The translations under genes were made by a program, and so were the position numbers. From an uncultured Gemmatimonadaceae bacterium (GTDB lineage: Bacteria; Gemmatimonadota; Gemmatimonadetes; Gemmatimonadales; Gemmatimonadaceae), in contig CAWBOC010000005.1 of NCBI GenBank assembly GCA_963790305.1, forward strand, positions 96,001 to 160,000: 64,000 nucleotides of DNA. The letters run 5' to 3'. Under the pieces are notes generated by a model that was not told the origin of the DNA, searched no databases, and was given only the letters and a program-made list of their open reading frames with translations. Shown piece by piece: positions 887 through 63,871 of this stretch. The stretch's first letter is position 1, and each line of letters opens with the position of its first letter.

Positions 887-1108
887 CGCTACCTCCCCCG
901 TCGAAAAATTCGGGTCGATCGATCGGGCCACGCGGTGCGCGCGACCCGATCACGTGCGTGTCCACGATTGGAGGGGGTGCGTTGACCGGCAATACAGGCA
1001 CCGTAAGGTCCCGGTCAGGATGCCGTGCTGTTTTCGGTCTCGAAGAACGCGCGAAGGCGCGACATCCCGCGCAACGTTAGGCCCTGGTCTCGACGGTTTA
1101 AGTAACGG

Positions 1109-1124
1109 TGTGACATTAATCACG
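1109..1124. promoter_or_regulatory. CRP/FNR-family-like operator (TGTGA-N6-TCACG)
   Basis: TGTGA CATTAA TCACG matches the CRP consensus TGTGA-N6-TCACA at 9/10 positions, in an AT-rich divergent intergenic region. Confidence 0.45.
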
Positions 1125-1162
1125 AATTTCGCTGCGGATGTAATGACGCCAAACACCTCGGG

Positions 1163-1178
1163 CGGCATAGGCAATGCT
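1163..1178 (+). promoter_or_regulatory. Putative sigma-54 (-24/-12) promoter for the outer-membrane protein gene
   Basis: CGGCATAGGCAATGCT has exact GG-N10-GC spacing, about 115 nt upstream of ATG 1293. Confidence 0.5.
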
Positions 1179-1292
1179 TTGTAAACAACGTTCGCAGCGA
1201 CGGTTCCGTCGCTCGGGGGGAAACACCAGATTGCCCCGTCCGCAACAACGCCCGCGGAGCAGAGCTGGAGGGCGAGGCAAGGAGATGATGAT

Positions 1293-2195
1293 ATGCAACG
1301 TCGAAGCATTCGATTCTTCCCTCTCGCCGTGGCAATGGTGCTCACGGCCGGAATCACCGCGGAGGGGGCAGCGCAGGACACCACGCGCTCGCAGACACCG
1401 GTGACCTCGACCAGACGGATTCCCGTTTCGAAAGAGGGCACGACGGTAACGGAATCTCCGGGCGCGATCTCTCGGGACAGCGCCGCGAGAGCCGATTCGA
1501 TCGCCGCCGCCGAGCGCGCGCGGCAGGATTCACTCGCCGCCATCGAGCGGGCTCGTCAGGACTCGATCGCCGCGGCCGAGCGTGCGCGTCAGGAAGAGCT
1601 CGCCAGGATCGAGCGGGCACGTCTGGACTCGATCGCGAGAGCCGAACAGGCTCGGCGGGACTCGATCGCGGCCGCTGAGGCCGCGGCTGCGGAGCGCTTC
1701 CGGGTCGGCCGCTTCGGTGGCTGGTACTTCAACCTCGGCGGCGGGATTAGCATGCCCAGGGGAGCGCTTGACGATCTGTATGGAAACGGGTGGAACGTCA
1801 CTGGCTCCGTCGGGTGGCATCCGACCGAATCGCCCTTCGGTGTGCGTTTCGACGCGACCTACGATCGCCTGAACGGGCAGTCGTTCCCGGCAGGCAGCTC
1901 GAACGAGCTTGCCGATGCGTCGGTGCTCGCCGGACTGGCTGAGGTGACACTTCGCGTCCCGCGCGCGCTTGGGCTCAACCCGTACATCGTTGGCGGCGGT
2001 GGTGTGTATCGCTTCAACGACTATGGTGTAGAGGATGCAGAGGCTTCGACGGAGTTCGGGTGGAACGTGGGCGCCGGTCTCCGTTTCGGATGGGGCTTCA
2101 CCAGCCTCTTCGTCGAATCGCGGTACATGAGCGTCGGCACGCCCGTCGAGCGCGCGACGTACATTCCGATTATTCTGGGTATAACGTTCCGTTAA
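1293..2195 (+). CDS. Outer-membrane beta-barrel protein with an N-terminal 11-aa repeat stalk
   Basis: Signal peptide, then SIAAAERARQD-type repeats, then alternating aromatic/Gly strands (GWYFNLGGG, NPYIVGGGG, FGWNVGAGLRF) ending in ITFR. A GGAG RBS is present. Confidence 0.8.
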   Translation: MQRRSIRFFPLAVAMVLTAGITAEGAAQDTTRSQTPVTSTRRIPVSKEGTTVTESPGAISRDSAARADSIAAAERARQDSLAAIERARQDSIAAAERARQEELARIERARLDSIARAEQARRDSIAAAEAAAAERFRVGRFGGWYFNLGGGISMPRGALDDLYGNGWNVTGSVGWHPTESPFGVRFDATYDRLNGQSFPAGSSNELADASVLAGLAEVTLRVPRALGLNPYIVGGGGVYRFNDYGVEDAEASTEFGWNVGAGLRFGWGFTSLFVESRYMSVGTPVERATYIPIILGITFR

Positions 2196-2200
2196 ACTGA

Positions 2201-2282
2201 AGGTCGTCGAGGTGGTCAAGGTGATCCAGGTGATCGAGGGTTCCCTTGATCACCTCGACCGCCTCGATCACCTCGACTGCCT
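2201..2282. repeat. Palindromic tandem-repeat element, family B (9-nt AGGTGATCG/AGGTCGTCG units)
   Basis: Four left units and a reverse-complement right arm (GATCACCTCGACCGCCTCGATCACCTCGAC). Confidence 0.85.
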
Positions 2283-3077
2283 TTGAAGAGTCCATTCATC
2301 CCCGCTGTCCTCAGCACTCTCCTGCTCGCGGCCACCGCGCCCGCCCAGGAGACCTACCTCGACACGGCGTACGTGGAGCTCCTGCCGCTGAGCCCACCGG
2401 TGTTCGAGTCGACGGCGCATCTCGTCTCCCGTAAGGACAGCATCGCATCGGCCAAGGCGCGTCGCGCGGCGGAGCGCTCGAGCGCGATGCGCGTCGTCGT
2501 CTCGATAGGCGCGCGGCGACTGTGGGTTGTTTCGGGCGCAGACACGCTGCTCGATGCGTCAGTGGCGGTTGGAATGGGACGCACGCTCTCGTACGCCGGC
2601 CGGCGCTGGACGTTCGCGACGCCGATCGGGGTGCGCAAAGTACTGGAGAAGCGTTCGACACCCTACTGGCGTCCGCCCGATTGGGCGTACGCCGAAGTCG
2701 CGCGCGAGCACGGGCTGCGGCTGGAGCGTCTCGGCGCGGATCGTCCAGTGACCCTCGGCGACGGACGGCTGCTCGTCGTCCGTGACAGTCTCGTTGGCGT
2801 GATGATGCCCGATGGCTTCGCACCCTTGCCCGTCGAGGAGCACATCGTCTTCGATGAGACGCTCTACGTCCCGCCACTCGGCACTCGCAACCGCCTGATC
2901 GAAGGAGAGCTGGGGACCTACCAGCTCGATCTCGGCGAGGGCTATCTTCTGCACGGCACGCCGCACGAGGAGTCGATCGGCCTCGCGACGACGCACGGCT
3001 GCGTCCGGCTGAAAGGCCACGACATCGAGTGGCTGTTCGCGAACGTGCCAGTGGGGACGGCGGTGTATCTGTACTGA
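2283..3077 (+). CDS. L,D-transpeptidase (YkuD family)
   Basis: Signal peptide; C-terminal LLHGT...IGLATTHGCVRL catalytic His/Cys motif; ends VPVGTAVYLY. Confidence 0.85.
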   Translation: MKSPFIPAVLSTLLLAATAPAQETYLDTAYVELLPLSPPVFESTAHLVSRKDSIASAKARRAAERSSAMRVVVSIGARRLWVVSGADTLLDASVAVGMGRTLSYAGRRWTFATPIGVRKVLEKRSTPYWRPPDWAYAEVAREHGLRLERLGADRPVTLGDGRLLVVRDSLVGVMMPDGFAPLPVEEHIVFDETLYVPPLGTRNRLIEGELGTYQLDLGEGYLLHGTPHEESIGLATTHGCVRLKGHDIEWLFANVPVGTAVYLY

Positions 3078-3080
3078 AGG

Positions 3081-3200
3081 CGAATGCGGAATGCGGAATG
3101 CGGAATGCTGTTAAGACCTTCAGCGATTGAGGGCTCCGGTGGTTGAACCGGAGCCCTCTCGCAGTACGGTCTTACCCGCAATCCGCATTCCGCATTCCGC
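3081..3200. repeat. Palindromic element, family A (7-nt GCGGAAT units) with an internal hairpin
   Basis: (AATGCGG)x3 ... GAGGGCTCCGGT-loop-ACCGGAGCCCTC ... (CCGCATT)x3. Confidence 0.85.
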
Positions 3201-3207
3201 TTTCTAT

Positions 3208-5389
3208 ATGATCCATCGTCACGCCATTCGCGTCGTTTTCAGCACCGTCGTTTTCGCGACCAGCGTAGCCCACGCTCAGCGCCCCTGTGACGTATCGCCG
3301 GCGCCGAACGGGCCGAGCCGCGACCTCTACTGCATCGAGCTGGTTGCCGTGCCTGGGGTTGCCGAAGCGATCGGGCGCGTTGAGCTCGCGTATCTGCCCA
3401 ACCCCTTCACCGTCGCGGCGCTCCCCGACGGGCGGTTGCAATACCAACCGATCGCATACCTCAGCCGCCTTCCTCCGCCAGCGTCGTTAGGTGCGTTCAC
3501 GCAGTACGTCGCGTGGATCAGCTCGACGAGCATGGACTCGGTAGCTCGACTCGGCACCGTGACCGAGGGCACCACCTCACTTCCGGCGATCGGTCTCGAG
3601 AAGTTCATCATTCTCGTCACGGCTGAGCCAGCGGGCGACGGCGCAGCGCCGCGCGGTCGTATCGTTCTTCGAGGCCAGTCGCCTTCGACACGCCTTCAGC
3701 CACCGGAGATCGTGCAGCTCGCGCTCGGCGCCATGGTCGATACGAGCTCCCGGGCGCCAACCGTCGATCACTCCAGTCATGGTGCGCACGGCACGACGGC
3801 CGAGATCAGGGCGCGCGGCGCTCCGGCGAGCTGGACCTCCGTCCCCATGCTTCCGGGGCTGCAGATGCTCGCCGCCGAAATGGCGCTCCGTCCCCAGGTA
3901 TCGCCGTGGCTTCCGGCGTGGTCGGACACGCTGCCGCTCGTGCAGCCGTCACGGCTCGTCCGCCTCGACAATGGCGATACGCTGCACCTCGACGCGGGAC
4001 TCGTCAGGCGGTCGTTCAAAGGGCGCGACGTGGCGATGTATGCCTTCAACGGACAGCACCCCGGGCCGTTGCTGATGGTGCCGCAGCATGCGGAGATCGT
4101 CGTCGTGCTTCGGAATGCGCTCGATCAGCCGACTACGATCCACTGGCACGGCGTGCGCCTCGACAACCGCTTCGACGGCGTGCCCGATCTCACGCAGGCG
4201 CCGGTGCCGCCCGGCGGCCGCTTCACCTACCGGATTCGCTTTCCCGACGCCGGCATCTACTGGTACCACCCACACGTGCGTGAGGACGTGCAGCAGGAGC
4301 TCGGCCTTTACGGCAATCTGCTGATCCGGTCGCCGCGCCCCGACTATTACGGACCTTCCCATCGCGAAGAAGTGCTCATCCTCGATGACCTGCTTCTCAC
4401 CGAGTCGGGCCTCGTCCCGTTCGGCGCTGAAGCAGCGACTCACGCGTTGATGGGGCGCTTCGGTGACGTCCTGCTCGTCAACGGCGAGCCTGGCTACCAG
4501 TTGGATGTGCGCCGCGGCGAGGTCGTCCGCTTCTTTCTGACGAACGTCTCCAACACGCGCACGCTCAACCTGTCATTCGCCGGCGCGCGAATGAAAGTCG
4601 TCGCGTCCGACGTGGGAGCTTTCGCCACCGAGGCATGGGTCGAGAGCGTCGTGATCGCGCCCGCGGAGCGGTACGTGGTGCACGTTCGTTTCGACGTGCC
4701 AGGAACGACGACCCTCGTGAATCGCGTCCGCGGACTCGATCATCTCTTTGGTCGCTTCTTCGCGCACGTCGACACGCTCGGGGTCATTCGCGTCGGCGAG
4801 CAGCCCGGGGTTCCCGATCTCGCGGCGAGCTTCGCCGTGCTGCGCCGCGATAGCGTCGCGACGGCCAATGCCGAGCGCTACCAGGAGCGGCGTGTCCCGC
4901 CCGCCGGATCGGTCCCTCGTCCTCTCCCTTCGCCGGCGCGATCTCCCGTTCATCACGAACCAGCTCCTCCAGCTCGATTCGATCTACTTCGCGCCGATCG
5001 AGTGGATCGGGACGATGCCCGCGATGAACTGGGCCTCGGACGCCCGGCAAGTGACGTGGGTGCTTCGCGATCCGGCGACGGGCCGCGAGAACATGGACAT
5101 CGACTGGCGCTTTCGGCGCGGGCAAGTCGTGAAGCTCCGGCTCGTCAGCGAGCGGCAGAGCGTGCACGCCATGCAGCATCCGGTGCACATTCACGGACAG
5201 CGGTTTCTCATCCTGGCGGTCAACGGCGTTCCCACGCGGCATCGCGCCTGGAAGGACACCGTCTTGCTCCCAGCAGGTGCGACGGTGGATCTTCTGGTCG
5301 AGATGAGCAACCCGGGGCGGTGGATGCTGCACTGCCACATCGCCGAGCATCTGTCGGCGAACATGATGATGGCCTTCACGGTGGAGTGA
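3208..5389 (+). CDS. Multicopper oxidase, split by a +1 frameshift near 4881
   Basis: Cu motifs HWHG and WYHPH are in the first frame; HPVHIHG and HCHIAEHLSANM are in the 4748..5389 frame. Deleting one C in TACCAGG joins them as ERY-RSGVSRPP. Confidence 0.85.
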
Positions 5390-5393
5390 CCTC

Positions 5394-6839
5394 ATGAGAC
5401 GGTACCTAACGACGCTCGGAGTTGCCCTCGCCCTCCTGGCGACAGGACTCGGCGAAACCCTCGCCGCACAGCGGGCGGACTCGCTTTCCTCCAACGTCCG
5501 CGAGTTCGTCTCCGTCGCCGAGCCGGTGGTGGCGCTCACCGGCGTGACGGTGATCGACGGGACCGGTGCGGCCCCGCGCCGCGATCAGACGATCGTCATC
5601 CGGAACGGGCGCATCGCCGAGGTCGGGCCTGCGTCGCGAGTGAAGACGCCGGCGGGCGCGCGCGAGATATCGTTGGCAGGTCACACCGTCATTCCTGGGC
5701 TGATCGGGATCCACGACCATCTCTTCTACACGGCGGCCGGCGGGCGCGCCGTGCAGATGGGATTCACCGGGCCACGTCTGTATCTCGGATCGGGAGTCAC
5801 GACGATCCGCACCACCGGCGGCCGGTCGCCGTACGCGGAGATCAACACCAAGGCCGCCGTCGACGCCGGCCGCGTCCCCGGTCCGCGTGTCTATCTCACC
5901 GCCCCCTACATCACCGGAGGCACGGGCGGCGGGGCGGGCAGCATGGCCGCGATCAATTCACCCGAGGCGGCTCGCCGATTCGTCGCGTACTGGGCGGCGG
6001 AAGGAATGACGTGGATCAAGGCCTACACCGACATTAGCCGCGCCGACCTCGGGGCCGCGATCGACGAAGCGCACAAGCGCGGCATGAAGGCCACCGGTCA
6101 TCTCTGCTCGGTGAGCTTCCGTGAGGCGGTGGAGCTCGGCATCGACAACCTCGAGCACGGGATGCTGGTCGCGTCGGACTTCGCGGCCGGAAAGCCCGTC
6201 GATGTCTGCCCCACGAACTACATGGCGGGCATCGCGCAGGCGAATCCGACCGGTCCGGAAGCGCAGGCGGTGATCAAGACGATGGTCGATCGCGGCGTGT
6301 CGATGACCTCGACGCTGGCGGTGTTCGAGCCGTTCGTGCCCGGTCGCCTGTCCAACGATGAGCGCACCTTGTCGATGATGACGCCGCCGCTGCGCGACGC
6401 CTATAAGACGCTCAAGCATCGCATCGACTCCGCGCGCTCCAGCCCGTTCACGGAACAGGTCTTCAAGAACGCGCTCGCCTTCGAGCGCGCGTTCGTGCAG
6501 GCCGGGGGTCTCCTCGCGGCAGGGGTCGATCCCACCGGAGCCGGTGGCGCGCTCGCGGGCTTCGGGGATCAGCGCAACTACGAGCTGCTGATCGAGGCGG
6601 GGTTCACTCCTCAGCAGGTCGTGCAGATCATGACGCTGAACGGCGCCAAGGTGCTCGGCGCGCAGGAACGGTTAGGCAGCATCGAGGCGGGAAAGCTCGC
6701 CGACCTGGTGGTGCTGCGCGGCGATCTCGTGGCGAATCCCCTCGTCATCCGTGAGGTGACGACGGTGTTCAAGGACGGCGTGGGGTACGATTCGCCGAAG
6801 CTGTTGGCGGCGGTGAAGGGGCGGGTGGGGATTGATTGA
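5394..6839 (+). CDS. Secreted amidohydrolase-family protein
   Basis: PGLIGIHDH (HxH), IKAY, GHL, EHG and GVD metal ligands; GSIEAGKLADLVV. Confidence 0.9.
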   Translation: MRRYLTTLGVALALLATGLGETLAAQRADSLSSNVREFVSVAEPVVALTGVTVIDGTGAAPRRDQTIVIRNGRIAEVGPASRVKTPAGAREISLAGHTVIPGLIGIHDHLFYTAAGGRAVQMGFTGPRLYLGSGVTTIRTTGGRSPYAEINTKAAVDAGRVPGPRVYLTAPYITGGTGGGAGSMAAINSPEAARRFVAYWAAEGMTWIKAYTDISRADLGAAIDEAHKRGMKATGHLCSVSFREAVELGIDNLEHGMLVASDFAAGKPVDVCPTNYMAGIAQANPTGPEAQAVIKTMVDRGVSMTSTLAVFEPFVPGRLSNDERTLSMMTPPLRDAYKTLKHRIDSARSSPFTEQVFKNALAFERAFVQAGGLLAAGVDPTGAGGALAGFGDQRNYELLIEAGFTPQQVVQIMTLNGAKVLGAQERLGSIEAGKLADLVVLRGDLVANPLVIREVTTVFKDGVGYDSPKLLAAVKGRVGID

Positions 6840-8682: not shown

Positions 8683-9438
8683 TCAGGCGTGCCTTGATGC
8701 TGGAACGCGCGCGATCATCGGCGCGCGGAGCTGCGTCGCCAGCCACGCCGCCGCGTCCTCTGTCGCCTCCGCCGGAAGGATGTGGCCCGTATTCCACCAG
8801 CGCATCTCCTTCGGCTCACCAGCCGCGGCGAAGAGTCGGTCGGCGTCCACGGGACGCACCGTTTGATCGTACCGGCCATGCGTCATGAGCAGCGGGCGCC
8901 CCGACAGCTTCCGCACCGCCTTGAGCGGATCCGCGACCGTTCGAATCAGCCGCTCGAACGGCGTGCCGAGCGGAAGGTCGCCGGCGGCCGCGAGCACGAC
9001 GGCGCGGACGCGCTTGTCGCGGGCCGCCGCCGCAACGCCCACGTACGCACCTAACGAATAGCCCACGATCGCCAGCCTCGAGGGATCATAGCGCTCGTGC
9101 TTGGCGAGACAGTCGAGCGCAGCTGCGCATTCCGCGAGTGCCAGGCGCCAATGACGGACCAGCGCCATCGGATTGAGCAGCGACTGCCGCTGGAGGGGTG
9201 CGTCCCGATCGCCATGCAGGGGAAGATCGATCGCCAGCGAGGCCACGCCACGGGATGCCAGCGCGCGGCCCACGGTGTCGGCCATCCGCTCCTTTCGCGA
9301 CGAATAGCCGTGGAGCAGCAGCGCCGCGGGCACCGGGTGCTCGAGGCCCGGCGGAAGGAGAAGAATCGCGGGAACGACGGCATCGCCGACGTGCAGCCGC
9401 AACGCGTGCCGCTCGACCTTCCCGTTCTGGTTTGGCAT
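8683..9438 (-). CDS. Alpha/beta-fold hydrolase
   Basis: LLHG, GYSLG nucleophile elbow, HGRYD and GH catalytic triad pattern. Confidence 0.9.
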   Translation of the reverse strand: MPNQNGKVERHALRLHVGDAVVPAILLLPPGLEHPVPAALLLHGYSSRKERMADTVGRALASRGVASLAIDLPLHGDRDAPLQRQSLLNPMALVRHWRLALAECAAALDCLAKHERYDPSRLAIVGYSLGAYVGVAAAARDKRVRAVVLAAAGDLPLGTPFERLIRTVADPLKAVRKLSGRPLLMTHGRYDQTVRPVDADRLFAAAGEPKEMRWWNTGHILPAEATEDAAAWLATQLRAPMIARVPASRHA

Positions 9439-43855: not shown

Positions 43856-43922
43856 GGGCGCTGGAGGAGCGCTGAAGTCCCAGCGCCGTTCCAGCGCCCT
43901 CAGCGCTGTTCCAGCGCTCTCC
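43834..43922. repeat. Palindromic element, family D
   Basis: GGCGCTGGAAAAGCGCTGAGGGCGCTGGAGGAGCGCTG ... CAGCGCCGTTCCAGCGCCCTCAGCGCTGTTCCAGCGCT. Confidence 0.85.
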
Positions 43923-43928: not shown

Positions 43929-44963
43929 CTAAGGCTTCTTCTCCTTTCCCGATTCTCCACCCGACTCCCCGCCGCTCCGCGTGGGCTTCGAGGACGGAGC
44001 CGGTTCGGCGCTCGACGACGTGCTCGAGCTGCCACGAGCGTTTTGGACGGGATCGCCCGAGCCTCCGGAACTGCCGCGCGCGGAGCGCACGGGTGAATGA
44101 CCTGACTCTCGACCAGGGTAGTGCACCACTTTGCGTGGCGAGCGCGCACGCAAGTCCGCCGTCGGTACTCGAGCACCCGGCTCGGCACGCCGACGCTTGT
44201 CGACCCCGGCGTCGCTGAGCTCCACGCCGTCGCGCTTGCCGCCATTTCGCGGGGCTCGTGGAGCTTCCACTGTGCCGGGTTTGGACGCCTCTGGTGCGCT
44301 GGCGACGACAGAAGGCTCCGCGTCGCCCGGGCATCCATAGTAGGGATAGTTCGACGCAACGCGGAAGACGCGTCCGTTGGCGCACGTCACGAGCCTGGTG
44401 AAGGCGAACACCGGCATCGACGGTGGTGCGGGCCAATCGACGAACAGATCCGTCGCCCAGTCCTCGTCGGCCTGCATTGGAACGACGATCTCGGTAAGCC
44501 GATCGATGACGTCGTATGGACGATACGACGCGTACATCCGGCCAAGGACCCGACGCGTCGCACCTAACGACGTCTGCAGCCGTTCGAGGTTGAGCGGGGC
44601 GGCCGACGCCACGGCGTAGTAGTATCGCGGCTGGTAGCTCGCGTGACCGAACGGATCGGTGTAGTAGAACATCCGCCCGGGTTGCAGGATGAGGTTCGCG
44701 TAGTGCGCGCTGGAGGCCACGTCATGCCCGCTCTGGGACGGATAGACCATCGTCGCGCCGCGCCCAGGAATGATCTCGAACATTGCGACGTGCGCGTCGC
44801 GATTGGTGAAGATCGGGTAGATCGGGCTGCTGCCGGCGGGGAAGCCGATCCAAACCCGGAGCGGCGGTGGGGCCTCGGGCTCCACCCCCTGCACGCGCGG
44901 AGCGGGTGCGCACGCAGCGAGGGCGGTGGTAGCGAGAACGAGGGTTGTCAGACGCGTCCGCAT
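43929..44963 (-). CDS. Hypothetical lipoprotein with a disordered C-terminal tail
   Basis: Lipobox LAAC; AAGGAGG RBS; S/G/P-rich tail. Confidence 0.75.
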   Translation of the reverse strand: MRTRLTTLVLATTALAACAPAPRVQGVEPEAPPPLRVWIGFPAGSSPIYPIFTNRDAHVAMFEIIPGRGATMVYPSQSGHDVASSAHYANLILQPGRMFYYTDPFGHASYQPRYYYAVASAAPLNLERLQTSLGATRRVLGRMYASYRPYDVIDRLTEIVVPMQADEDWATDLFVDWPAPPSMPVFAFTRLVTCANGRVFRVASNYPYYGCPGDAEPSVVASAPEASKPGTVEAPRAPRNGGKRDGVELSDAGVDKRRRAEPGARVPTADLRARSPRKVVHYPGRESGHSPVRSARGSSGGSGDPVQNARGSSSTSSSAEPAPSSKPTRSGGESGGESGKEKKP

Positions 44964-46025: not shown

Positions 46026-46111
46026 AGGTTGTCGAGGTCGTCAAGGATGTCGAGGTGATCGAGGTGAAGTCGCCTGGATCACCTCGACGACCTCGATGAC
46101 CTCGATAACCT
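46026..46111. repeat. Palindromic element, family B
   Basis: AGGTTGTCGAGGTCGTCAAGGATGTCGAGGTGATCGAGG ... CCTGGATCACCTCGACGACCTCGATGACCTCGATAACCT. Confidence 0.88.
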
Positions 46112-52863: not shown

Positions 52864-52955
52864 AGGTAGGCGAGGTCGTCGAAGTGATCGAGGTGATCGA
52901 GGGAACGGGTTTTCGCCTTGACACCCTCGACAACCTCGACATCCTCGACGACCTC
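52864..52955. repeat. Palindromic element, family B
   Basis: AGGTAGGCGAGGTCGTCGAAGTGATCGAGGTGATCGAGG ... CCTTGACACCCTCGACAACCTCGACATCCTCGACGACCT. Confidence 0.85.
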
Positions 52956-52960: not shown

Positions 52961-54070
52961 ATGACCTGGCGCCGCTGGCTCATCACGATCGTCTCCTTCG
53001 CCGCCAGCATCGGCGTCTCCATCTGGATCATCTTCCGTAGCTGGCCGGTCGAGGAGCGCTCGGTCGGCCTGCCGCTTTTCGCCCACGCTCTGTGCGCCGC
53101 CGCGGTGGCCATCGATCTCGCGCTGCGTGCGATGAAAATCCGGCTCAGCGGCGCATCGCTCGGTATCCCTGTTTCGTTCGGCGTCGCCATGCGCACCGGC
53201 CTCGCCGGAGACTTCGCGGCGGCGATCACGCCAGCCCGCACCGGAGCGGAGCCCGCGCGCTATCTCGTCCTCGCCAAGGCGCGCATCTCGCCGGCCGCGA
53301 CATTCCTGCTGCTCTTCGCCGAGCTCTTTCTCGAGATGCTCGCGCTCGTGATCGTGGCCATGGGGATTGCGCTCTTCTTCACCGAGGAGCCGGACTCGAG
53401 CCTTGGCTGGATCGTGGGACTCGTCGGTGGATACGCGACGTTCGTCATTGGCGTGGGGCTCGCCGCCGTGTTGCTGGCGTGGAGGCGCTCGAGCGGGCCG
53501 CCCCCGCGATGGGCCAGGCGCATTGGGTTCAACGCCTTGCGCTGGCGCGCGATTCAGCGCTCGCTCCGGCGGCTGCGGTCGAGCGCGACACTCGTTCGGG
53601 ACGCGCGACTCGACTACTTCATGCTCGGACTGCTGGTGTCGGTGCTGCACGTGCTGGCGCGGCTGGCGGTGCTGCCGATCATCGTCTACTCGTTAGGGGG
53701 CGAGGCGCCGCTCTCGAAGCTCGTGCTGTGGCCCCTGGCGCTGTTCTACGGCGCGGTGATCGCACCGGTGCCCGGCGGGGGCGGCATCGTAGAGGTAGGG
53801 TTCAAGGCGACTCTGGGTGGGGTCATTCCCGTTGCGCTCTTCGGGGCATCGCTCGTGTGGTGGCGCTTTTACACGTTCTACCTGTACATTCTGCTCGGCG
53901 CGCTGGCAGCCGGCGGAACAGTGCTGCGGGCTCTTCGTTCCGCGGAGGAGAACGGAAACGCGGAGGAGAACGGAAACATGGAGGAGATCGCGGCCGGGCC
54001 GGAGGTGACGCCGCCCGAGCCCCACAAGGCACACGCCGTCGAGCACCAGGTGGCCGACCAGCTTCCGTGA
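52961..54070 (+). CDS. Lysylphosphatidylglycerol-synthase TM (flippase-like, UPF0104) protein
   Basis: ITPARTGAEP, PVPGGGGIVE and WWRFYTFY. Confidence 0.88.
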   Translation: MTWRRWLITIVSFAASIGVSIWIIFRSWPVEERSVGLPLFAHALCAAAVAIDLALRAMKIRLSGASLGIPVSFGVAMRTGLAGDFAAAITPARTGAEPARYLVLAKARISPAATFLLLFAELFLEMLALVIVAMGIALFFTEEPDSSLGWIVGLVGGYATFVIGVGLAAVLLAWRRSSGPPPRWARRIGFNALRWRAIQRSLRRLRSSATLVRDARLDYFMLGLLVSVLHVLARLAVLPIIVYSLGGEAPLSKLVLWPLALFYGAVIAPVPGGGGIVEVGFKATLGGVIPVALFGASLVWWRFYTFYLYILLGALAAGGTVLRALRSAEENGNAEENGNMEEIAAGPEVTPPEPHKAHAVEHQVADQLP

Positions 54071-57009: not shown

Positions 57010-59215
57010 TCACCACGCCGCCACGATCGACTTGATCTCGGCGGCATTCATTCGGACGGCGCCGTCCGGCGACACCGCGATCGCGACGTTCGTGCCCCGC
57101 ACGAGCACCCGGTCGCCTAACGCAAAGGCAGTCGCGAGGTCGGGCAGCTCCCGAACCAGGGCGAAGTATGCTTCGGAATACGCCTGCACCTTGACCACGC
57201 GTGTGCCCTCCGAGAACCGGGCGTCCGTCCACACGCTGTCGCGCATGACGAACGTCCGCGTACCAACCCGCCTCGAGATGATACCCCTTTCCTCGAGCGC
57301 CGGTGCCGAGGCAGCGTCGGCTTGCGACAACGTCTGCGCACCTCGCATGGCCGAGGCAGCCTTCGCCTCTTCGAACCGGCGCACCCGTGCTTCGGGCGCA
57401 GCCGAAGTCGCCACCCCACGTGTCATGTCACGACCGCTCTGGTTGGCTACCATCCCGGGCTCGAGCACGAGGTACGAGGTGAGCTCCGTGGGGATGCCGT
57501 ATCGCTCTCCGAGCGAGCGGATCTCATCGTCGATCTCCGGCGACGCGCCATTGCGCCGGCGCTCCGCACTCAAATACCCGACGCGCTGCGTCGCCCACAG
57601 ACGCGCCACGAAGACATTCTCGCGGTCGCGGTCGGGCAGCTCGGCTTCGGTCGTCCACGACACCCGGCCGTTGGTCGATTCACCCTCGAAGCGCACGAGG
57701 ATCGTTCCACTTCCTTCGTACCGTGCGAGGACGACGAGGTCCTGGCCGGCGAACAGATCGTACGGCCCAGCGGGATGCATCTTCGACAATCGCGCTCCTT
57801 CCACACGCACACGCAGATCCGTCGCAACGGGATTCGTGAGCCGCGACGCGACGATGCTCACCGCCCGCTCCACGGATTCATCGGGTCGAACGAAGTGTGC
57901 GGTCCCCCGCCCCTCCAGGGCCAGCCGCTCGAGCAAGGCGACGTTGAGATCGGCGCCAACGCCGAAGGTGAAGATGCGTCGCCGTCCGCGCTCGGTCGCG
58001 GCCTGTGCGGCAATCCGCTCAGGATTGCGCTCGCCGACCGTTGGCTCACCGTCGGTCACGAACAACACGAGTGGCAGCCGGCCATTGTCGGCGGGAACGG
58101 ACAGCGCTTCTTCCAGCGCGCCGGAGATGTTCGTGGATCCTTCCGCGCGTAGCCGATCGAGGTAGCGCTCCGCCGCGGCGATATTCTCGCGCGTCGCGAA
58201 CACGGGCTCGTCGCGGAAGTTGCGCACGTCGCTCGCGAAGTCGATCAGTCTGAAGCGGTCACGGGAGGACAGCGTCGCCAGGAGCTGCTTCCCAGCCTCA
58301 CGCGCCTGCTGGATTTTCTTTCCACTCATTGAGCCGGACACATCAAGGACCAACGTGATGTCGCGCGGAGTCTCACGCGGAGCAATCGCCGGGGGCGACA
58401 GGGTGAGCAGGGCGAAGCCTTCCTCACGCCCCGGAGCGTGTGACAGCACGCCGATCGCCGCGCGCGTTCCCCGGCGAAGTGGAAGGAGCAACGTCATCTC
58501 CGCGCGCACCGCCCGAGAGCTCGACGCGGGCCATCTCGCGGTCATCGCTGACGCGCAGATCGTGCGTCGGCGAATACGGGCGGCCGTAGCTCGAACGAGG
58601 ATAGCTCAGACGAAACTGGAGCCTGCCCTCCGGAGCCTCGCGATCGCGAGCGACGTCCGCGACGGGACCTGAATGTCCCCCCCGGAAGTAGTCCACCCGC
58701 ACCGCATCGCCCTCACGCTCGGCCACCGCATGAAAGCGCACGACGACGCGGCGCGTTTCGCCAGCACCGATCGGAAAGATTCTCGTCCGCAGGAGCCCAT
58801 GGCCCATCCACTCCACGAGTGCCGGGTCTCGGCTCTGCCTGACGATGTCCTCGTAGATGCGTCGTGCCTCGTCGGCGCTCATCGTCTCCCCGGCGACGAG
58901 CTCGCCGTTGATCTCGAGCTTCAGTCCCTCGAACGCGGCGTTTTTCGGAAGCGGAAAGAGATAGTCCGCCTCGCCGATTCCGCCGCCCCGGTTGATGAAG
59001 GTCTCTTCCACCTCATAGTGCAGCACGCCGTCGCGCAGCTCGACCTCGACGTTGCTGGCCCGTCGGTGGACGTCGGAGACTGGAACCCGCCGGCATTCGC
59101 GCCCCGGACACCCCGGACAGGGGATCGGGGCACAGGGCCGTGGAATGATCCGCCCCTGCGCCAGTGCCGGCGCTGGGGAGAGCAGGAGAGCAAGAACGAG
59201 AATGGCGAGACGCAT
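57010..59215 (-). CDS. Secreted VIT + VWA domain protein, +1 frameshift near 58500
   Basis: The VIT part (EADYLFPLP, ARRIYEDIV, DPALVE) and the VWA part (DVSGSM, GSTNI, TDG) are in different frames. Removing one G from CGCGGAGATG joins GGAR-EMTLLLP. Confidence 0.87.
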
Positions 59216-59285
59216 TTTTGGCTTCCGTTGGGTGACGATATGGAGACGTCGACGGAGGCCGGACTTGCACAGCGCGCAAAAACAA

Positions 59286-59394
59286 AGGCGCTAGAAAGCG
59301 CTAGAAGCGCTAAAGGCGCTGAGTTACAGCCGCTTTTAGCGCCTCTAGCGCCTCTAGCGCCTTGTCTCCAGCGCCTCTAGCGCCTCTAGCGCCT
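59286..59394. repeat. Palindromic element, family D
   Basis: AGGCGCTAGAAAGCGCTAGAAGCGCTAAAGGCGCTG ... (TAGCGCCTC)n. Confidence 0.88.
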
Positions 59395-60272
59395 CAAGAA
59401 GCTTCCCCTCGCCGCTGCTCGCCGCCCGATCGGGCCACCACTCGAACCGCCAGGAGGTTCTTGTCGGCACGCCCGAGGACTTTCGTGAGGTTCTCGCGCG
59501 GATAGCGCACTGCCCAGCCGAGCGAGAACTCGACGGGCGCGGACCGGAGCGCGGAGCGCTGCAGCCGGGCGACGACCTGCTGAACGCGCTCGCCGTCGGC
59601 ATTGGCGAGCAATATCACGAACTCGTCGCCGCCGAGTCGGACCACCGCATCCTCGGCGCGAACGTGGCGCATGAGGAAGCGGGCCATTTTCACCAGCGCT
59701 CGATCGCCCGCCTGGTGCCCAAAGCGATCGTTGAATTGCTTGAAGTGATCAATGTCGATGATGATGCATCCCCATGACTCACCGGGATGCGCGCTCGCCC
59801 GCCGCTCGAGCGTCGAGAGATAGCGGCGGTTGTAGCAGCCGGTGAGCGGATCACGGAGGCTCTGCTGCACGAGATCGTCGGCGGCTCGCTTTCGCGCGGT
59901 GATGTCGACGATCACTCCGTAGTAGTACACGTCGCCAGTCTGCGCCTCGCGGACCGCGTATGTGGTGTCGAGCACCGTGCGTGTCGTGCCGTCAGGACGC
60001 CGGAGCTCGAGCTCGAGCTCGAGAGTGTGCCCTTCGCTATCGACGACGTCGAGCACGCGCGGCCGCTGGGTCGGGTCGATGAGGAACTCATCGACCCGAC
60101 GGTCTTTCAGCGCCTGGACCGAGTCGACACCGAGGATTTCGAGCATCGCCGGATTGGCATCGACGAATTCGCCTTCCGGCGTCGTGATGTACATGCCGAC
60201 CCGCACGTGGCGCACGAGCTCGCGCAGTGTCTCTCCCTCACCGAGACTCGGCCGGTGCGACCGCGGCTTCAT
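59394..60272 (-). CDS. PAS-GGDEF diguanylate cyclase
   Basis: PAS domain (FVDANPAMLEILG); DPLTGCYNRR, DIDHFKQFND, RAED I-site and GGDEF. Confidence 0.93.
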   Translation of the reverse strand: MKPRSHRPSLGEGETLRELVRHVRVGMYITTPEGEFVDANPAMLEILGVDSVQALKDRRVDEFLIDPTQRPRVLDVVDSEGHTLELELELRRPDGTTRTVLDTTYAVREAQTGDVYYYGVIVDITARKRAADDLVQQSLRDPLTGCYNRRYLSTLERRASAHPGESWGCIIIDIDHFKQFNDRFGHQAGDRALVKMARFLMRHVRAEDAVVRLGGDEFVILLANADGERVQQVVARLQRSALRSAPVEFSLGWAVRYPRENLTKVLGRADKNLLAVRVVARSGGEQRRGEAS

Positions 60273-61501
60273 TGCGAGACTCCTCCGTTTTCGCGCGCGG
60301 GGATCGCGGTGGCGGTGGGCTCCTCCACCTCACGAACCGGCGTGGTCTCATCCACGACGACGAGCCGTCGGTCGAGCTGCCGCATCATCGAGCAGAATGC
60401 GCGTGCCACATCAGGGTCGAATTCCGTCCCCGCGCGCGACTCGATGTATTCCAGGGCGCGCTCCGATTCCCACGCATCGCGATAGGGGCGGCGCGTACGC
60501 AGTGCATCGTACACGTCACACACGTGAACGAGCCGGCTGGCACTGTGGCAGTCGCGACCGTAGTGGAGACAGGGATAGCCTCCTCCGTTGAGCATGATGT
60601 GATGCTCGTAGGCGACCACGGCGGCGAGATCGAGCTGCTTGTCGCTGGCGAAGATGATCCGCGCCCCATCGGCGGGGTGCCGGTTCATGATCGCGCGCTC
60701 TTCCGGCGTGAGGCGGCCCGGCTTTACCAGGATCTCGCGTGGGATGCGCACCTTTCCGAGGTCGTGCAGCAGCCCCGCGACGCCATACGCACGAACATCG
60801 CGCTTGCCGAGTCCCATGAACTCCGCCAGCGCCATCGAGAGCACGGACACGTTCATCGAATGCGTGGTCGTGTACTGGTCGAACTCCTTCAGCTCGAGCA
60901 ATGGGATGACGACCTGACTTTCGCCGTGCATGGCAACCGACAGCGAGCGCACGACCGCCTCCGCTTCGACGAGTGGCAGCTCGCCGCGGTGCTCCACTTC
61001 GCCGTGCAGCCAGCGGACCGCTTCGGCTTCCTCGCCGAGCGTGTAGGTGATGGTGGCCGTCGGCAGCACCGCCTCGCTTGGCGCCTTCAGCCCAGTCGCG
61101 CCCCGCACACCAATGGCGCCGAACCGAATGCTGGACGGGCGCGTCTGGCGTTGCTCGGTGGTGTCCACCGTCAATGCCGTAAGGCGCGACATGATGTCAT
61201 CGAGGAAGGTCTCGTAATCTTCGCGCGTCACGCCGGGCTGGAGCTCGATGCGCTGGATGCCCGCCGCCGCCAATCGCCCACCCCATTCCCACTCGCGGAG
61301 CTCGCGCAGCGCTCGCTCTCCGTAGATCACCTCGGCTCCAAGGAACGAAAACCGGGCGGAGGGATCATATTTCTGAAGCGCTTCGAGGTGCTCGAAGGCG
61401 TTGTCGATGGCCTTTACTCGCGCGGGATGGCCGTCGCCGTACAGCGCCATCGTCGACAGCGCCTGCGCGAACGCGGAGAGGAAGCGTGTCGGCTCGCTCA
61501 C
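60269..61501 (-). CDS. HD-GYP cyclic-dinucleotide phosphodiesterase with an unnamed N-terminal domain
   Basis: DQYTTTHS, LLHDLGK, HP, EHH, GGYP and DVYDALRTRRPYR. The GTG start overlaps the upstream TGA. Confidence 0.9.
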   Translation of the reverse strand: MSEPTRFLSAFAQALSTMALYGDGHPARVKAIDNAFEHLEALQKYDPSARFSFLGAEVIYGERALRELREWEWGGRLAAAGIQRIELQPGVTREDYETFLDDIMSRLTALTVDTTEQRQTRPSSIRFGAIGVRGATGLKAPSEAVLPTATITYTLGEEAEAVRWLHGEVEHRGELPLVEAEAVVRSLSVAMHGESQVVIPLLELKEFDQYTTTHSMNVSVLSMALAEFMGLGKRDVRAYGVAGLLHDLGKVRIPREILVKPGRLTPEERAIMNRHPADGARIIFASDKQLDLAAVVAYEHHIMLNGGGYPCLHYGRDCHSASRLVHVCDVYDALRTRRPYRDAWESERALEYIESRAGTEFDPDVARAFCSMMRQLDRRLVVVDETTPVREVEEPTATAIPARENGGVSQ

Positions 61502-63600
61502 GCCTGGTGCCCGGTCGCCATGACGGTATTGCGGATCTCGACGTCGGTCGAGCCGAGCGCGAGCGCAAGCACGGCGCCCACGCCGCGGCCTCGCGCCCAA
61601 TGGGTCGCGAGACCGTTGAGTGCCGCGAGCATGGTGGGGGACTTTGGCGCGAGTCGCGGTCGACCGAAGAGTCTCCGCGATGCGCCCGCCGCGCGCTCCA
61701 TGAGCCACTCCAGCACCTCCGTCGTCCGAACCAATGCAATGACGGCGATCGCGTGCGAGCTCAGCTCCGCGTCGAGCGTCCCCTCGGTCACGCGCCGTTG
61801 CAAGATGGCGACCGCGGACAGCGGACACCGGCCGGACGCAGCCTGGAGCGCGACGCGAAAAACGCGCTCGTCGCTGTCGTCGAGGCCGGCGCAGATCGCG
61901 CGCTCCCTGGCGGCGGGGACGGCGACCAGAATGCGAATGGCTTCGCGACGCACACGACCATCGGCATGCCGCGCATAGCTCGTGCCCAGATCGACGTTCT
62001 GATCACCGAGGTCGGCGAGGAGCATCAGCATGTTGCGCACGACGAACCAGCGCTCGTCAGGCAATCGGGCCGTGATGGCCGTTGTCGCCTCCGGTCCGAG
62101 CTGGACGAGGAGATCGAGCAACTTTCGGCGAATCGCCCGCGATGGGGACACCTCGAGCGCGTCGAGCAGCGGGTCGGCGGCGGCGAGCTTGAGCCGCGGA
62201 ACGAGGTGGTCGACGAGCGTGAAATCGATCGGCACCTCGCGGAGTGCCGTGCGAAGCTGTTCCGGCGACGCAAGCTGTCGCCACATGGCGGCGGCCGCCC
62301 GGCTCTGCTCCGGAGCGTTCGATACCAGCGTGAACAGGCGCAAGAGGTCTCCGCGCCGGATCATCGCCTCGACCGCCCGCGTCACCGGCTCACCTAACGA
62401 ATCGACCTCGAGGCTCATCTGGATGATCCGCTCCGGCTCCGGTCCATGCGAGGAGGGCTCGGTCGTGGCGAAGAGCGGTGCCGCCTTCGCCATGTGGTCG
62501 AGGACGACGCGATAGTTCCCCGGATTGGGATCGTCGAGCGTCCAGTCACCAATGAGGCGCTGCACGTGATCGCGAAGCTCGCTCTCCGCACCGGCACGCA
62601 TCTCGGGACCCGCGCCCTGCTCGGCGTGCGTCGCGAGCTTCGTGAGCAGGCGAACGAGCGAGTGCGAAATCGTCTGCTGCGACGTGTCCGCGGCGGCCTG
62701 CACGAGCTCCATCACGGCGTCGACCGCCATCCCCTGCGCGGCATCGAGCATGAAGCGTTGCCGCTGCGAGAGATCGCCTCCCATTTCGAGCAGTCGCCGA
62801 AGTGTCGCGGGATTGAGCGCGCTGACCATCGTCGAAATGCGCTTCTGGAGCGCCTGCGATTCCGCGCCGCCCTTGCGCTTCAGCTCCTCGGCGATCTGGA
62901 GCAGGTAGCCGACGATGACCTGGTCGTACGCCACCTCGCGACGGTGCTCGTCGATCGCCTTCGCCACGACCACGGGGTCGGTCGACGGAACCTCGCCGGT
63001 CGTGGATGCGGCCGATTCGGCGAACATTGCGGCGCGCGCAAGCCCGACCCAGAGCTGGGCAGCACGTGCACCCGCCTCTCCGCTGCTCCCGCCGCCACCA
63101 GCGGCATCTTGCGAGGAGCGCTCACTCGCCAGCTCCAGCTGGTCGTACGTGAGCGGAAAGGCGCGAATGTGCGCCCAGCGGCGAAGCTCTTCCGCGGGCC
63201 GCAGGCCTAACGGCGTGACGCTGCGCTCGGCATCGGCGGCGATCGTCTTGAGAAGATCGGCGACCTCATCCCGCGCAATGCCGCGCAGGAACTTCACGGC
63301 ACCGAGGTGGTGTCGGTGGAGCCGATGCGCGAGGTCGCGCAGGAGGGAGTTACTCGCGGCGGTGACGACTCCCTCGATGACGAGCTGCTGGCGCGCAACG
63401 CCAAGCGAGAGTGTGGCACGGTCCTGCAGCAGGCGGACGAGGCGGAGCACGAGCGCGTCGACGGCGCCGGCCAGCAGGGGATGCCCCGACGGGTAAATCG
63501 CGTTCTTGTGCAACGCGATCGACAGCTCGATGAGGAAGTCGGCGAGGTCGCGCGACAGCGCCGCGCTCTCGCCCGAGGCGGTCGCGTGCGCGTGGGTCAC
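61498..63600 (-). CDS. Large helical protein with C-terminal HEAT-like repeats
   Basis: LPDERWFVVRNML, HADGRVRREAI and LDDSDERV; N-terminal IYPSGHP domain. Confidence 0.8.
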   Translation of the reverse strand: MTHAHATASGESAALSRDLADFLIELSIALHKNAIYPSGHPLLAGAVDALVLRLVRLLQDRATLSLGVARQQLVIEGVVTAASNSLLRDLAHRLHRHHLGAVKFLRGIARDEVADLLKTIAADAERSVTPLGLRPAEELRRWAHIRAFPLTYDQLELASERSSQDAAGGGGSSGEAGARAAQLWVGLARAAMFAESAASTTGEVPSTDPVVVAKAIDEHRREVAYDQVIVGYLLQIAEELKRKGGAESQALQKRISTMVSALNPATLRRLLEMGGDLSQRQRFMLDAAQGMAVDAVMELVQAAADTSQQTISHSLVRLLTKLATHAEQGAGPEMRAGAESELRDHVQRLIGDWTLDDPNPGNYRVVLDHMAKAAPLFATTEPSSHGPEPERIIQMSLEVDSLGEPVTRAVEAMIRRGDLLRLFTLVSNAPEQSRAAAAMWRQLASPEQLRTALREVPIDFTLVDHLVPRLKLAAADPLLDALEVSPSRAIRRKLLDLLVQLGPEATTAITARLPDERWFVVRNMLMLLADLGDQNVDLGTSYARHADGRVRREAIRILVAVPAARERAICAGLDDSDERVFRVALQAASGRCPLSAVAILQRRVTEGTLDAELSSHAIAVIALVRTTEVLEWLMERAAGASRRLFGRPRLAPKSPTMLAALNGLATHWARGRGVGAVLALALGSTDVEIRNTVMATGHQA

Positions 63601-63782
63601 GGTCCCCTCCGGGGACGCGTGGCGAGTGCGATCGGTTGCGGGCGGCGCTGGGCTGAATGCACGGCTGCGTCGGGATGGGTACCAAGGTCCCGAAAGAAAG
63701 ACGAGCGGGGACCGCCCCCGTTACGGTCGTCAGGCGGGGGCCCGGGCCCCGCAAGTCCCTGTGAAGCAAGCCATTTAGCCCG

Positions 63783-63798
63783 TGGCACATGCGTTGCC
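63783..63798 (+). promoter_or_regulatory. Sigma-54 (-24/-12) promoter
   Basis: TGGCACATGCGTTGC matches TGGCAC-N5-TTGC, about 75 nt upstream of ATG 63872. Confidence 0.65.
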
Positions 63799-63871
63799 AA
63801 TTGCAGTTCCCGCCGGCCCTCCCGACCCGCGCGATGCGGGGACGCGAAGGCCGCCTAACGCGGAGGAAGTC

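Follow-up and report, generated by a model that had tools for sequence, protein, structure and literature searches.

An asymmetric octamer, GCCTAACG, is the most over-represented 8-mer in the 4.31 Mb genome of the uncultured soil bacterium of the Gemmatimonadaceae from which the window (the whole 64,000-nucleotide stretch of DNA analysed here) derives. What keeps the word in place acts on the DNA, against codon preference. The word may mark DNA for uptake or for recognition as self, in the manner of DUS, USS or HIP1, a reading to which we give somewhat less than an even chance. The original prediction had placed 18 copies of the heptamer CCTAACG in the window, and every coordinate and strand is exact, with 14 copies on the plus strand and 4 on the minus strand. 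The flanks of the heptamer extend it to the full word, G being found at position -1 in 67% of copies and at position +8 in 74%; the core is C-C/A-T-A-A-C with G preferred at either side, and the sequence past these eight bases is random. Within the window the variants are GCCTAACG (10 copies), ACCTAACG (7 copies) and CCCTAACG (1 copy). Genome-wide, 855 copies of GCCTAACG are present against 39.9-44.3 expected from order-2 and order-3 Markov models, an excess of about 20-fold, and its heptamer, with 1229 copies on both strands, likewise heads the 7-mers. A second variant, GCATAAC, is enriched 4.0-fold (324 copies), and other RYYYAAC words show no enrichment in this genome. In 100 dinucleotide-preserving shuffles of the window the mean was 2.58 copies (sd 1.49, maximum 7) and none reached 18. 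The enrichment that had been claimed is therefore real, while the expectation of about 7 copies offered with it was too high, so that the true enrichment is stronger.

By our own crude gene calls (3904 called genes), 15 of the 18 window copies lie within genes, one supplies stop codons and two are intergenic. The reading frames that had been proposed were recovered as NCG-TTA-GGN in eight copies, CCT-AAC-G in four and C-CTA-ACG in three. TTA and CTA are indeed scarce, with 1088 and 1768 codons, respectively, in all called genes, and 451 of the TTA codons (41%) and 198 of the CTA codons fall inside the word. Shuffling synonymous codons within genes (30 replicates) gave 109 heptamers where 940 are observed, and 43 octamers where 691 are observed. 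Across the genome the word encodes 13.6% of [SPTA]-Leu-Gly tripeptides and 23.6% of those of the form Pro-Asn-[VADEG], and in rpoB it is used at four of the seven [SPTA]-Leu-Gly sites despite the rare codon. Intergenic copies (198 of 1229, 16%) occur at the background rate for a genome that is 14% non-coding, and every usable frame is used. The proposal of a DNA-level signal under selection thus withstood both the codon-preserving shuffle and the count of TTA codons outside the motif, which show codon preference to be overridden, and conservation at orthologous sites adds support.

Conservation was scored as heptamer identity in aligned sites of four congeners with 78-85% DNA identity to the source genome. 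Of 55 aligned pairs, 38 preserve the window heptamer unchanged, compared with 21-35% when all heptamers are counted. Among copies read as NCG-TTA-GGN, the CCCTAACG copy at 53691-53697 (minus strand, in a plus-strand gene) is kept in all four congeners. The ACCTAACG copies at 3485-3491 (minus strand, in a plus-strand multicopper-oxidase gene) and 9050-9056 (plus strand, in a minus-strand hydrolase gene) are each kept in three of three, as is the GCCTAACG copy at 57116-57122 (plus strand, in a minus-strand VWA gene), and ACCTAACG at 44563-44569 (plus strand, in a minus-strand gene) is kept in two of two. A single minus-strand gene carries two plus-strand copies in this frame, ACCTAACG at 62393-62399 (kept in two of three) and GCCTAACG at 63206-63212 (one of three). 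A plus-strand M14 peptidase gene also holds GCCTAACG on the minus strand at 11958-11964 (three of four); at 11524-11530 this gene has GCCTAACG on the plus strand, read as C-CTA-ACG (three of four). The same frame is used by the plus-strand GCCTAACG copy at 51211-51217 in a GMC oxidoreductase gene (two of four) and by ACCTAACG at 5405-5411 (plus strand) at the start of an amidohydrolase gene, which is missing from all four. Those read as CCT-AAC-G, all on the plus strand, are ACCTAACG at 12854-12860 and GCCTAACG at 13805-13811 (two of four each), and GCCTAACG at 48434-48440 and 49016-49022 (three of four each). The plus-strand ACCTAACG copy at 42375-42381, unaligned in the congeners, supplies two stop codons: TAA (42377-42379) for a plus-strand decarboxylase gene and TAG, read from CTA (42376-42378) on the opposite strand, for a convergent minus-strand response-regulator gene. 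The two remaining copies are GCCTAACG on the minus strand at 1075-1081, intergenic by the crude gene calls and kept in congeners G008 and G004, and GCCTAACG on the plus strand at 63854-63860, intergenic and unaligned.

Sites are kept in related species, and occurrence of the word is lineage specific. Enrichment is confined to scattered genera of one Gemmatimonadota order, with up to 6360 copies per genome; closely related genera differ in density from fewer than 10 to as many as 1247 copies per Mb, and genus g38 alone spans 13 to 974. Genomes that do not have the trait typically hold 5-40 copies, against 100-300 of the reversed word, and because the word is rare there it would discriminate self from foreign DNA. 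In a 400-kb sample of the motif-poor relative G010 there was no alternative abundant word (top z-score about 12), and we therefore see no system of dialects such as that of the Neisseriaceae. Spacing is more even than random: in the source genome 91 gaps are shorter than 500 bp where 164 are expected, and in a sample of G016, the densest genome, the coefficient of variation is 0.76 with 33 gaps below 100 bp against 115 expected. Motif density is lower in atypical DNA: occupancy falls from 19-21% in the two highest GC3 sextiles to 8.5% in the lowest, the source genome's integron cassette array has one copy in 30 kb, and one 37-kb stretch of 63% GC has none.

We propose that GCCTAACG would be a recognition word read on double-stranded DNA, whatever the strand, frame or gene, and that the force favouring it would hold copies at many of the sites compatible with the protein sequence, against codon preference. 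Its most likely role would be that of a 'self DNA' tag for natural transformation. Fragments with the word would be preferentially taken up or integrated, and word-bearing alleles would spread by recombination, a form of molecular drive, up to the point where mutation and codon selection offset the gain. Even spacing is known for USS from the H. influenzae literature, and inverted pairs serving as terminators are common for DUS. Like these words, GCCTAACG is short and non-palindromic (it differs from its own reverse complement), with copies numbering in the hundreds to thousands in a genome, on both strands and, within genes, in several frames; it is also lineage specific, with density varying widely among related genera, more evenly spaced than chance and kept at orthologous sites, and both orientations are about equal with no replichore polarity (628:601; 599:630 relative to the G-rich strand). 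It differs in belonging to another phylum and being another word, of 8 bp with no extended flank; inverted motif pairs acting as terminators are absent from the source genome, and the motif-poor relative offers no alternative dialect. Beyond general background, the properties of DUS (Neisseriaceae) and USS (Pasteurellaceae) are taken from PMC3630211, PMC2397512 and PMC3458573.

The comparison extends to HIP1 (GCGATCGC) of cyanobacteria, likewise an octamer of extreme abundance and patchy phylogenetic distribution. According to PMC13756078, HIP1 is polyphyletic, spreads by substitution without indels, is conserved in coding and non-coding DNA and is quasi-periodic, and substitution spread without indels, conservation in both kinds of DNA and quasi-regular spacing are common to the two words. 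The same paper describes decades in which HIP1 had no known function, and a recent argument that it is an uptake tag. HIP1, however, is a palindrome containing methylase sites, whereas GCCTAACG is asymmetric and is tracked by no methylase.

ComEC is encoded in all 31 genomes, motif-rich and motif-poor alike. DprA gave a match of 239 bits and ComEA a weak one of 28.9 bits; four secretins were found, and type IV pilins are present, including four GspH-type minor pilins. This competence machinery is necessary and not discriminating: its genes also occur in motif-poor genomes, and since ComEC is equally present there the machinery fails to explain the patchy distribution. In Neisseria the cognate receptor is a ComP-type minor pilin. 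Of the four GspH-type pilins, the one profiled across the 31 genomes fails to follow the trait, with good orthologues in motif-poor genera and none in G016. Our literature search found no paper on competence in Gemmatimonadota.

All of the sequence evidence would fit the binding site of a chromosomal protein about as well as an uptake tag. On this account the copies would be bound by an abundant sequence-specific protein, nucleoid-associated or chromosome-organising, with each site weakly selected, a possibility that we rate as unlikely but the strongest of the alternatives. It would agree with copies that are strand-symmetric, evenly spaced, both genic and intergenic and conserved at orthologous positions. 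Furthermore, copies are sparser on contig C6, which carries the terminus switch in GC skew, than on the rest of the genome (1.88 and 2.97 per 10 kb; p = 1e-5), and this recalls the terminus-excluded site families of SlmA and Noc. Known families of this kind, however, have tens of sites, compared with 855 to 6360 here, and without a drive, selection on thousands of sites, each dispensable by itself, against codon bias would be hard to sustain. The swings in density among closely related genera and within g38 are odd for a housekeeping architecture protein, and a candidate protein was not found.

A methylation-linked ratchet, in which the word is the target of a methyltransferase and near-matches are converted by methyl-directed or mismatch repair, appears quite improbable; in an extended form, the uptake system might read the methylated word. 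Such conversion was reportedly once proposed for HIP1. With its adenine next to last, GCCTAACG has what we take to be the form of an MmeI or type IIL site, and the source genome encodes a 1021-aa Eco57I/MmeI-like N6-methylase. HIP1 is described as working in a methylation-dependent manner in PMC13756078. When methylases were compared across genomes by gene presence or absence, however, the Eco57I-like gene proved to be vertically inherited, with orthologues in 29 of 31 genomes whether rich or poor in the motif, and when 8 rich and 13 poor orthologues were aligned, no residue at any column was common to the rich lineages and missing from the poor. The D12-class methylase does not follow the trait: genus g1 and four poor genomes have it, and the rich G012, G016 and G030 lack it. 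C5 methylases are found in two of the 31 genomes, both poor, and PF01555 methylases are absent from the source genome and present in one of nine genomes of genus g1. PF01555 methylases likewise do not follow the trait. A ratchet based on repair of cytosine deamination is therefore left without an enzyme.

The word also has an integron counterpart. The original prediction did not recognise it as a described motif, and for the dispersed motif this agrees with the literature searched; GCCTAAC, however, fits the attC inverse-core consensus RYYYAAC, a textbook integron word, as given in PMC3053210. Among motif-poor relatives, attC sites ending in GTTAGGC or GTTAGAC have GCCTAACG itself as their 5' box, and the identical box is found in attC sites of G021, G019, G009, G011, G018, G020 and G026. 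The source genome's own attC sites instead have GCATAAC or GCAGAAC as their box. It is conceivable, albeit quite doubtful, that the octamer is an integron R-box in genome-wide use, one word marking cassette ends and tagging the whole chromosome. If so, DNA uptake, or integrase docking, and cassette traffic would share one recognition signal; cells would preferentially import both their own kind of DNA and DNA with cassette ends or, alternatively, the integrase would be able to land at thousands of places on the chromosome. Dispersed copies were considered as attC sites themselves and rejected, as they have no partner box, no hairpin and no cassettes. An attC profile search of the source genome gave 33 matches in the array on contig C9 and 8 outside it (contig C8 and the end of contig C7), with no solitary attC or cassette at any dispersed copy, and CCTAAC followed by GTTAGR within 40-140 nt occurs in only five places in this genome, none of them in an array.

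More doubtful still is that the copies would serve the integron integrase, or a tyrosine recombinase related to it, as docking or secondary recombination sites similar to attG, with the R-box half-site spread chromosome-wide. The letters are identical to those of attC, GCCTAACG matching the 5' box and GTTAGGC the 3' box in related genomes, the enriched variant GCATAAC is the box of the source genome's own attC sites, and integrase genes exceed the family cut-off in 22 of 31 relatives and in five of five further motif-rich genomes. Non-classical genomic attG sites are used by integron integrases, according to PMC12901181, which cites Loot 2024. In integron attC sites an RYYYAAC box is paired with a GTTRRRY box 50-150 nt further downstream, the two enclosing an imperfect palindrome, and the sites lie in co-oriented arrays. 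The dispersed copies, however, stand in ordinary conserved genes, cassette-free and with neither partner box nor hairpin. In G016, the densest genome, the only integrase is frameshifted, and G012 and G005 gave no more than weak matches (about 94-96 bits, below the cut-off), which resemble other tyrosine recombinases most closely. No enrichment is seen for other RYYYAAC words, the second position of the word is invariant in dispersed copies but varies among attC boxes, and cleavage hotspots would be expected to be lost rather than gained through gene conversion.

A polar guide sequence, whether a recombination hotspot like Chi or a guide for FtsK like KOPS, is very improbable. These are likewise over-represented octamers of kilobase-scale density, and about one copy per 3.5-5 kb in the source genome is comparable to the density of Chi in E. 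coli. The 14:4 split in the window, taken in the original prediction as a property of the motif, also pointed this way (binomial p = 0.031), but the genome-wide split is 628:601 and the window skew is local chance. Relative to the G-rich strand the split is 599:630 (p = 0.39), the two sides of the GC-skew switches in contigs C5 and C6 show an equal split, and neighbouring copies are independent in orientation (615 same, 601 opposite). The Chi and KOPS analogies fail because neither strand skew nor replichore bias exists genome-wide, orientation being unlinked to replication; in addition, RecC (PF04257) was found in none of the 31 genomes, the E. coli control being positive.

Finally, there is next to no prospect that composition, codon usage, amino-acid motifs or a repeat element produced the enrichment as a side effect, an account that retains nothing in its favour after the controls: the count is reproduced neither by Markov models of order 1 to 3 nor by dinucleotide or synonymous-codon shuffles, the flanks are random beyond the eight bases, and four unrelated peptide contexts as well as intergenic DNA are all in use.

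A pattern search of the window returned 18 copies of the heptamer CCTAACG, 14 on the forward strand and four on the reverse (as CGTTAGG), and every coordinate in the original prediction proved exact. Dinucleotide-preserving shuffles of the window (n = 100) gave a mean of 2.58 copies and a maximum of 7. In the source genome (G000; 4,313,030 bp in 13 contigs, 66% G+C) there are 1229 copies of the heptamer (628 forward, 601 reverse) against an order-2 Markov expectation of 105.6, and it and the overlapping GCCTAAC are the most over-represented 7-mers at Markov orders 1, 2 and 3. It is the core of an octamer, GCCTAACG, which far exceeds every other 8-mer in over-representation (855 copies, with 39.9-44.3 expected). 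In a positional profile numbered from the first C of CCTAA, 67% of copies have G at -1, 89% have C at +6 and 74% have G at +7. Single-mismatch counts in G000 indicated that the outer positions of the word are tolerant and that changes are rare at positions 2 and 7; GCATAACG is enriched too (253 copies, 7 times expected). A different word, AAGCGACG, is not enriched in G000 (238 copies vs 229 for its control). We rejected a longer consensus, as the flanks beyond the word are random both in G000 and in its densest relative, G016.

Genes were called in G000 by a simple codon-score method (3904 genes, 85.7% of the genome). The 1229 copies fall as NCG-TTA-GGN in a gene on the opposite strand (449), CCT-AAC-G (211), C-CTA-ACG (198) or C-GTT-AGG (75), supply a TAA stop (49) or a TAG stop on the other strand (49), or are intergenic (198). 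A single window copy, at 42375-42381, provides the stop codons of two convergent genes, TAA ending a decarboxylase gene on the + strand and TAG a response-regulator gene on the - strand. The original prediction held that the word is a DNA-level signal forcing rare codons, and it withstood both attempts at refutation. When synonymous codons were shuffled within each gene (30 replicates), 109 coding heptamers were obtained vs 940 observed, and 43 coding octamers vs 691; this shuffle is conservative, because the motif's own rare codons stay in the shuffled pool. Moreover, the word holds 451 of the 1088 TTA codons in the called genes (41%) and 198 of the 1768 CTA codons, so TTA and CTA are not equally common outside it. 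The word spells 13.6% of [SPTA]-Leu-Gly and 23.6% of Pro-Asn-[VADEG] tripeptides, 3.2% of x-Leu-Thr and 0.9% of x-Val-Arg, as expected if a force favouring the motif were balanced against the number of disfavoured codons required. At the level of sequence, these analyses establish a word on double-stranded DNA, blind to strand and frame, which some lineages actively maintain against codon bias.

A comparison of orthologues, proposed with the original prediction, came out in its favour. The window was compared with the syntenic regions of four congeners by alignment (G001, G003, G004 and G008; identity 78.5-85.2%), and the heptamer was letter-perfect at 38 of 55 aligned site-genome pairs (69%), vs 21-35% for all heptamers in the same alignments (binomial against 0.29, p about 1e-9, the related genomes not being independent). 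Where a copy has been lost, a synonymous neighbour one step away stands in its place, for example CCGAACG, CCTGACG or CGTTGGG, and some copies are present solely in other congeners, which implies site turnover.

The proposed strand skew, on the other hand, is not a property of the motif: the genome-wide split is even, and the 14:4 split of the window (p = 0.031) is best read as chance. GC skew switches near 400 kb on contig C5, of which the window is positions 96001-160000, and near 200 kb on contig C6, and forward and reverse counts are equal either side of both switches. Replichore polarity was rejected, as none appeared in cumulative counts over all long contigs or when strands were assigned by local GC skew (599:630, p = 0.39); local clustering of orientation was rejected likewise, neighbouring copies being independent (615 co-oriented vs 601 opposed). 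This lack of polarity removes the analogies with Chi and KOPS that had been drawn. RecC (PF04257) was found in none of the 31 related genomes searched, so the RecBCD pathway appears to be lacking there.

Across these 31 relatives, every one of the nine genomes in the source genus, g1, is rich in the octamer (382-1006 copies), as are G012 (605), G016 (6360 copies in 5.1 Mb) and G030 (345) outside it; the density of the word reaches 1.25 copies per kb. Another 18 of the 31 have 3-65 copies, vs 44-433 of the reversed word used as control. Among 301 genomes sampled from the phylum, the octamer exceeds the control in a single order, to which about 200 of them belong. The family f1 genomes above control are G000, G008, G115, G125, G160, G235, G291, G292 and G298, with G072 marginal; in family f2, genus g68 alone is above control (G168, G206 and G213). 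Families f4-f12 (103 genomes) have none above control, the highest count being 70 copies vs a control of 179. Four unpublished genomes (G015, G079, G118 and G198) enter the tallies solely as motif-poor rows, and no conclusion rests on them. Within a single genus, g38, G235 and G291 carry about 3900-4100 octamers and G287 carries 66. An alternative abundant word in a motif-poor relative was rejected, since a 400-kb sample of G010 held none comparable.

We also compared rpoB in 24 genomes. The gene carries no copy in the 10 motif-poor genomes and 1-10 copies in 8 of the 14 rich or intermediate ones, and different rich genera carry copies at identical codons. Two [SPTA]-Leu-Gly sites are CGTTAGG in G000, G016, G235, G291 and G298; there, motif-poor G287 and G010 have CGCTCGG or CGCTGGG. 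At three sites G235 and G291 have CGTTAGG (CCTTAGG at one in G291) vs CGCTCGG in G287. Occupancy of [SPTA]-Leu-Gly in rpoB is high (G000 4/7, G016 4/5, G235 6/8, G291 5/7, G298 4/7), so the shared positions may reflect near-saturation of a few permissible sites rather than common descent. An rpoB tree was built by a quick maximum-likelihood search (22 rows, midpoint root). It omits G287 and G009, whose sequences are partial, and G012 and G018, in which no rpoB was found. Rich genera fall in at least four separate places of f1 with poor genera nested among them, and rich g68 and g18 fall outside f1. By this tree the trait was either lost many times or gained several times.

To our knowledge, hyper-abundant lineage-specific words that override codon usage are found in very few groups (Neisseriaceae, Pasteurellaceae and cyanobacteria). 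Such words leave the clearest trace in genomes of a preference for exchanging 'self' DNA, and the present word adds a strong new case from a soil phylum that has been little studied and is mostly uncultured. Our first-ranked reading, offered tentatively, is that the octamer is an uptake or self-recognition tag, its closest known kinds being the uptake sequences of the first two families and the cyanobacterial octamer HIP1. For HIP1, a role as a methylation-dependent uptake tag has recently been argued (PMC13756078). Literature queries with the present word gave only primers and unrelated uses among the matches listed, and no account of the dispersed motif was found in the openly accessible literature searched. 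As for uptake machinery, G000 has DprA, secretins and pilins, with ComEA weakly detected; ComEC was rejected as a correlate because it is universal among the 31 relatives, and one GspH-type minor pilin because it does not track the trait across them.

The layout of the copies bears on the tag reading as well as on a second, unlikely one, that they are sites of a chromosomal binding protein. The mean gap in G000 is 3.4 kb and short gaps are too few (91 under 500 bp vs 164 expected). In a 429-kb sample of G016 the mean gap is 570 bp (coefficient of variation 0.76), with 33 gaps under 100 bp vs 115 expected, 463 of 200-800 bp vs 328, and 21 over 1.6 kb vs 43. Copies are distributed evenly along gene length. 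The lowest GC3 sextile shows half the occupancy of the top two (8.5% vs 19-21%), and G+C is lower in the longest motif-free stretches of G000, six of the 12 longest of which lie on C6. Copy density on this contig, where a putative terminus lies near 200 kb, is 1.88 per 10 kb vs 2.97 elsewhere (p = 1e-5). The 28.5-kb motif-free stretch of the window (13812-42374) contains ordinary genes and fits the exponential tail; it was rejected as a special region, there being 12 gaps over 16 kb vs 11.7 expected.

A methylation ratchet is more doubtful still. One-mismatch neighbours at positions 2 and 7 are depleted to 0.23-0.30 of expectation, which we do not accept as evidence of a repair ratchet, since sub-words of the motif itself inflate the Markov expectation for these neighbours. 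G000 encodes an N6-methylase of 1021 aa (C7:233022-236087) resembling Eco57I and MmeI, a family normally met in mobile restriction systems. Its inheritance here is unusual in being vertical: an orthologue is present in 29 of 31 genomes across the order, and identity drops from 87% to 37% in step with relatedness. This breadth, with no residue pattern tracking the trait, led us to reject it as the protein recognising the word. A D12-class methylase, also present in G000, and the C5 and PF01555 methylases were rejected because their profiles over the 31 relatives do not track the trait. No protein recognising the word was found among the methylase, ComEC and minor-pilin candidates profiled; sharp contrasts between close genomes, such as that in g38, make it findable by comparative genomics.

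Less probable again is that the copies are integrase-related sites: dispersed copies sit in ordinary conserved genes, with no partner box and no adjacent attC-profile hit, and were rejected as attC sites or decayed cassettes. The resemblance behind this reading comes from the motif-poor genomes, whose few copies cluster in one orientation on single contigs at intervals of about 500-650 bp. These clusters are textbook cassette arrays in which each copy forms the 5' box of an imperfect palindrome about 100 nt long, with GTTAGGC or GTTAGAC at its end, and they match the attC definition of RYYYAAC and GTTRRRY boxes (PMC3053210). Only GCCTAAC and near variants are enriched among NNNNAAC words; the RYYYAAC class as a whole is not. 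The identity of word and box could be coincidence, but this is unlikely by our reckoning, since 16 of about 8200 heptamer classes fit RYYYAAC. Integron integrases can use non-classical genomic attG sites (PMC12901181), so a functional link between word and integrase is possible. In a phylum rich in integrons, the exact match of the word to the attC box also suggests that transformation and the traffic of cassettes may be connected, which can be tested.

Of the 31 relatives, 22, G000 among them, have an integron integrase scoring above the family cut-off, as do all five further rich genomes. Integrase presence was rejected as a correlate of the trait, being found in rich and poor genomes alike. 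The G016 integrase lies in three pieces in different frames (C182:835-1781) and appears to be a pseudogene, and G012 and G005 have only weak, sub-cut-off matches (about 94-96 bits) nearest other tyrosine recombinases; judging from these genomes, the trait does not require an intact integrase. The G000 integrase (C9:694912-695922) is co-oriented with its array ('inverted' layout) in a chromosomal integron (C9:694912-726000) with 33 attC-profile hits over about 30 kb at 60-63% G+C, at least 22 pattern-matched attC sites of 131-140 nt, and one motif copy in 30 kb. Eight further hits lie at C8:5984-27302 and C7:274397-274533, those on C8 forming a second cluster without an integrase. The attC boxes of G000 are GCATAAC/GCAGAAC and GTTATGC/GTTCTGC. 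Arrays of motif-rich G298 use NNCTAACG...CGTTAGNN, the NNCTAACG boxes including GCCTAACG, and we therefore rejected the idea that rich genomes avoid GCCTAAC in their own integrons, although G000 does not use it; this test is weak, as a strict hairpin detector found few sites and contig ends cut most arrays. In practical terms, the word is a sensitive marker for binning and for detecting foreign DNA or cassette arrays in these genomes.

Other repeated sequences accompany the word. An intergenic repeat of about 85-110 bp lies at 43837-43917, 46026-46111, 52864-52955 and 59285-59398 of the window; its matches to many contigs of the genus, on both strands, indicate that it is palindromic, REP- or MITE-like. 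The second most enriched octamer of G000, TCCGCATT/AATGCGGA, was rejected as a relative of the motif because 435 of its 628 copies are intergenic and its distance to the motif is not fixed; it probably belongs to this palindromic repeat. A separate word family, GCTAGAGG / CCTCTAGC / AGCGCCTCT, occurs in 198-268 copies in G000, up to 15-fold enriched under an order-3 model.
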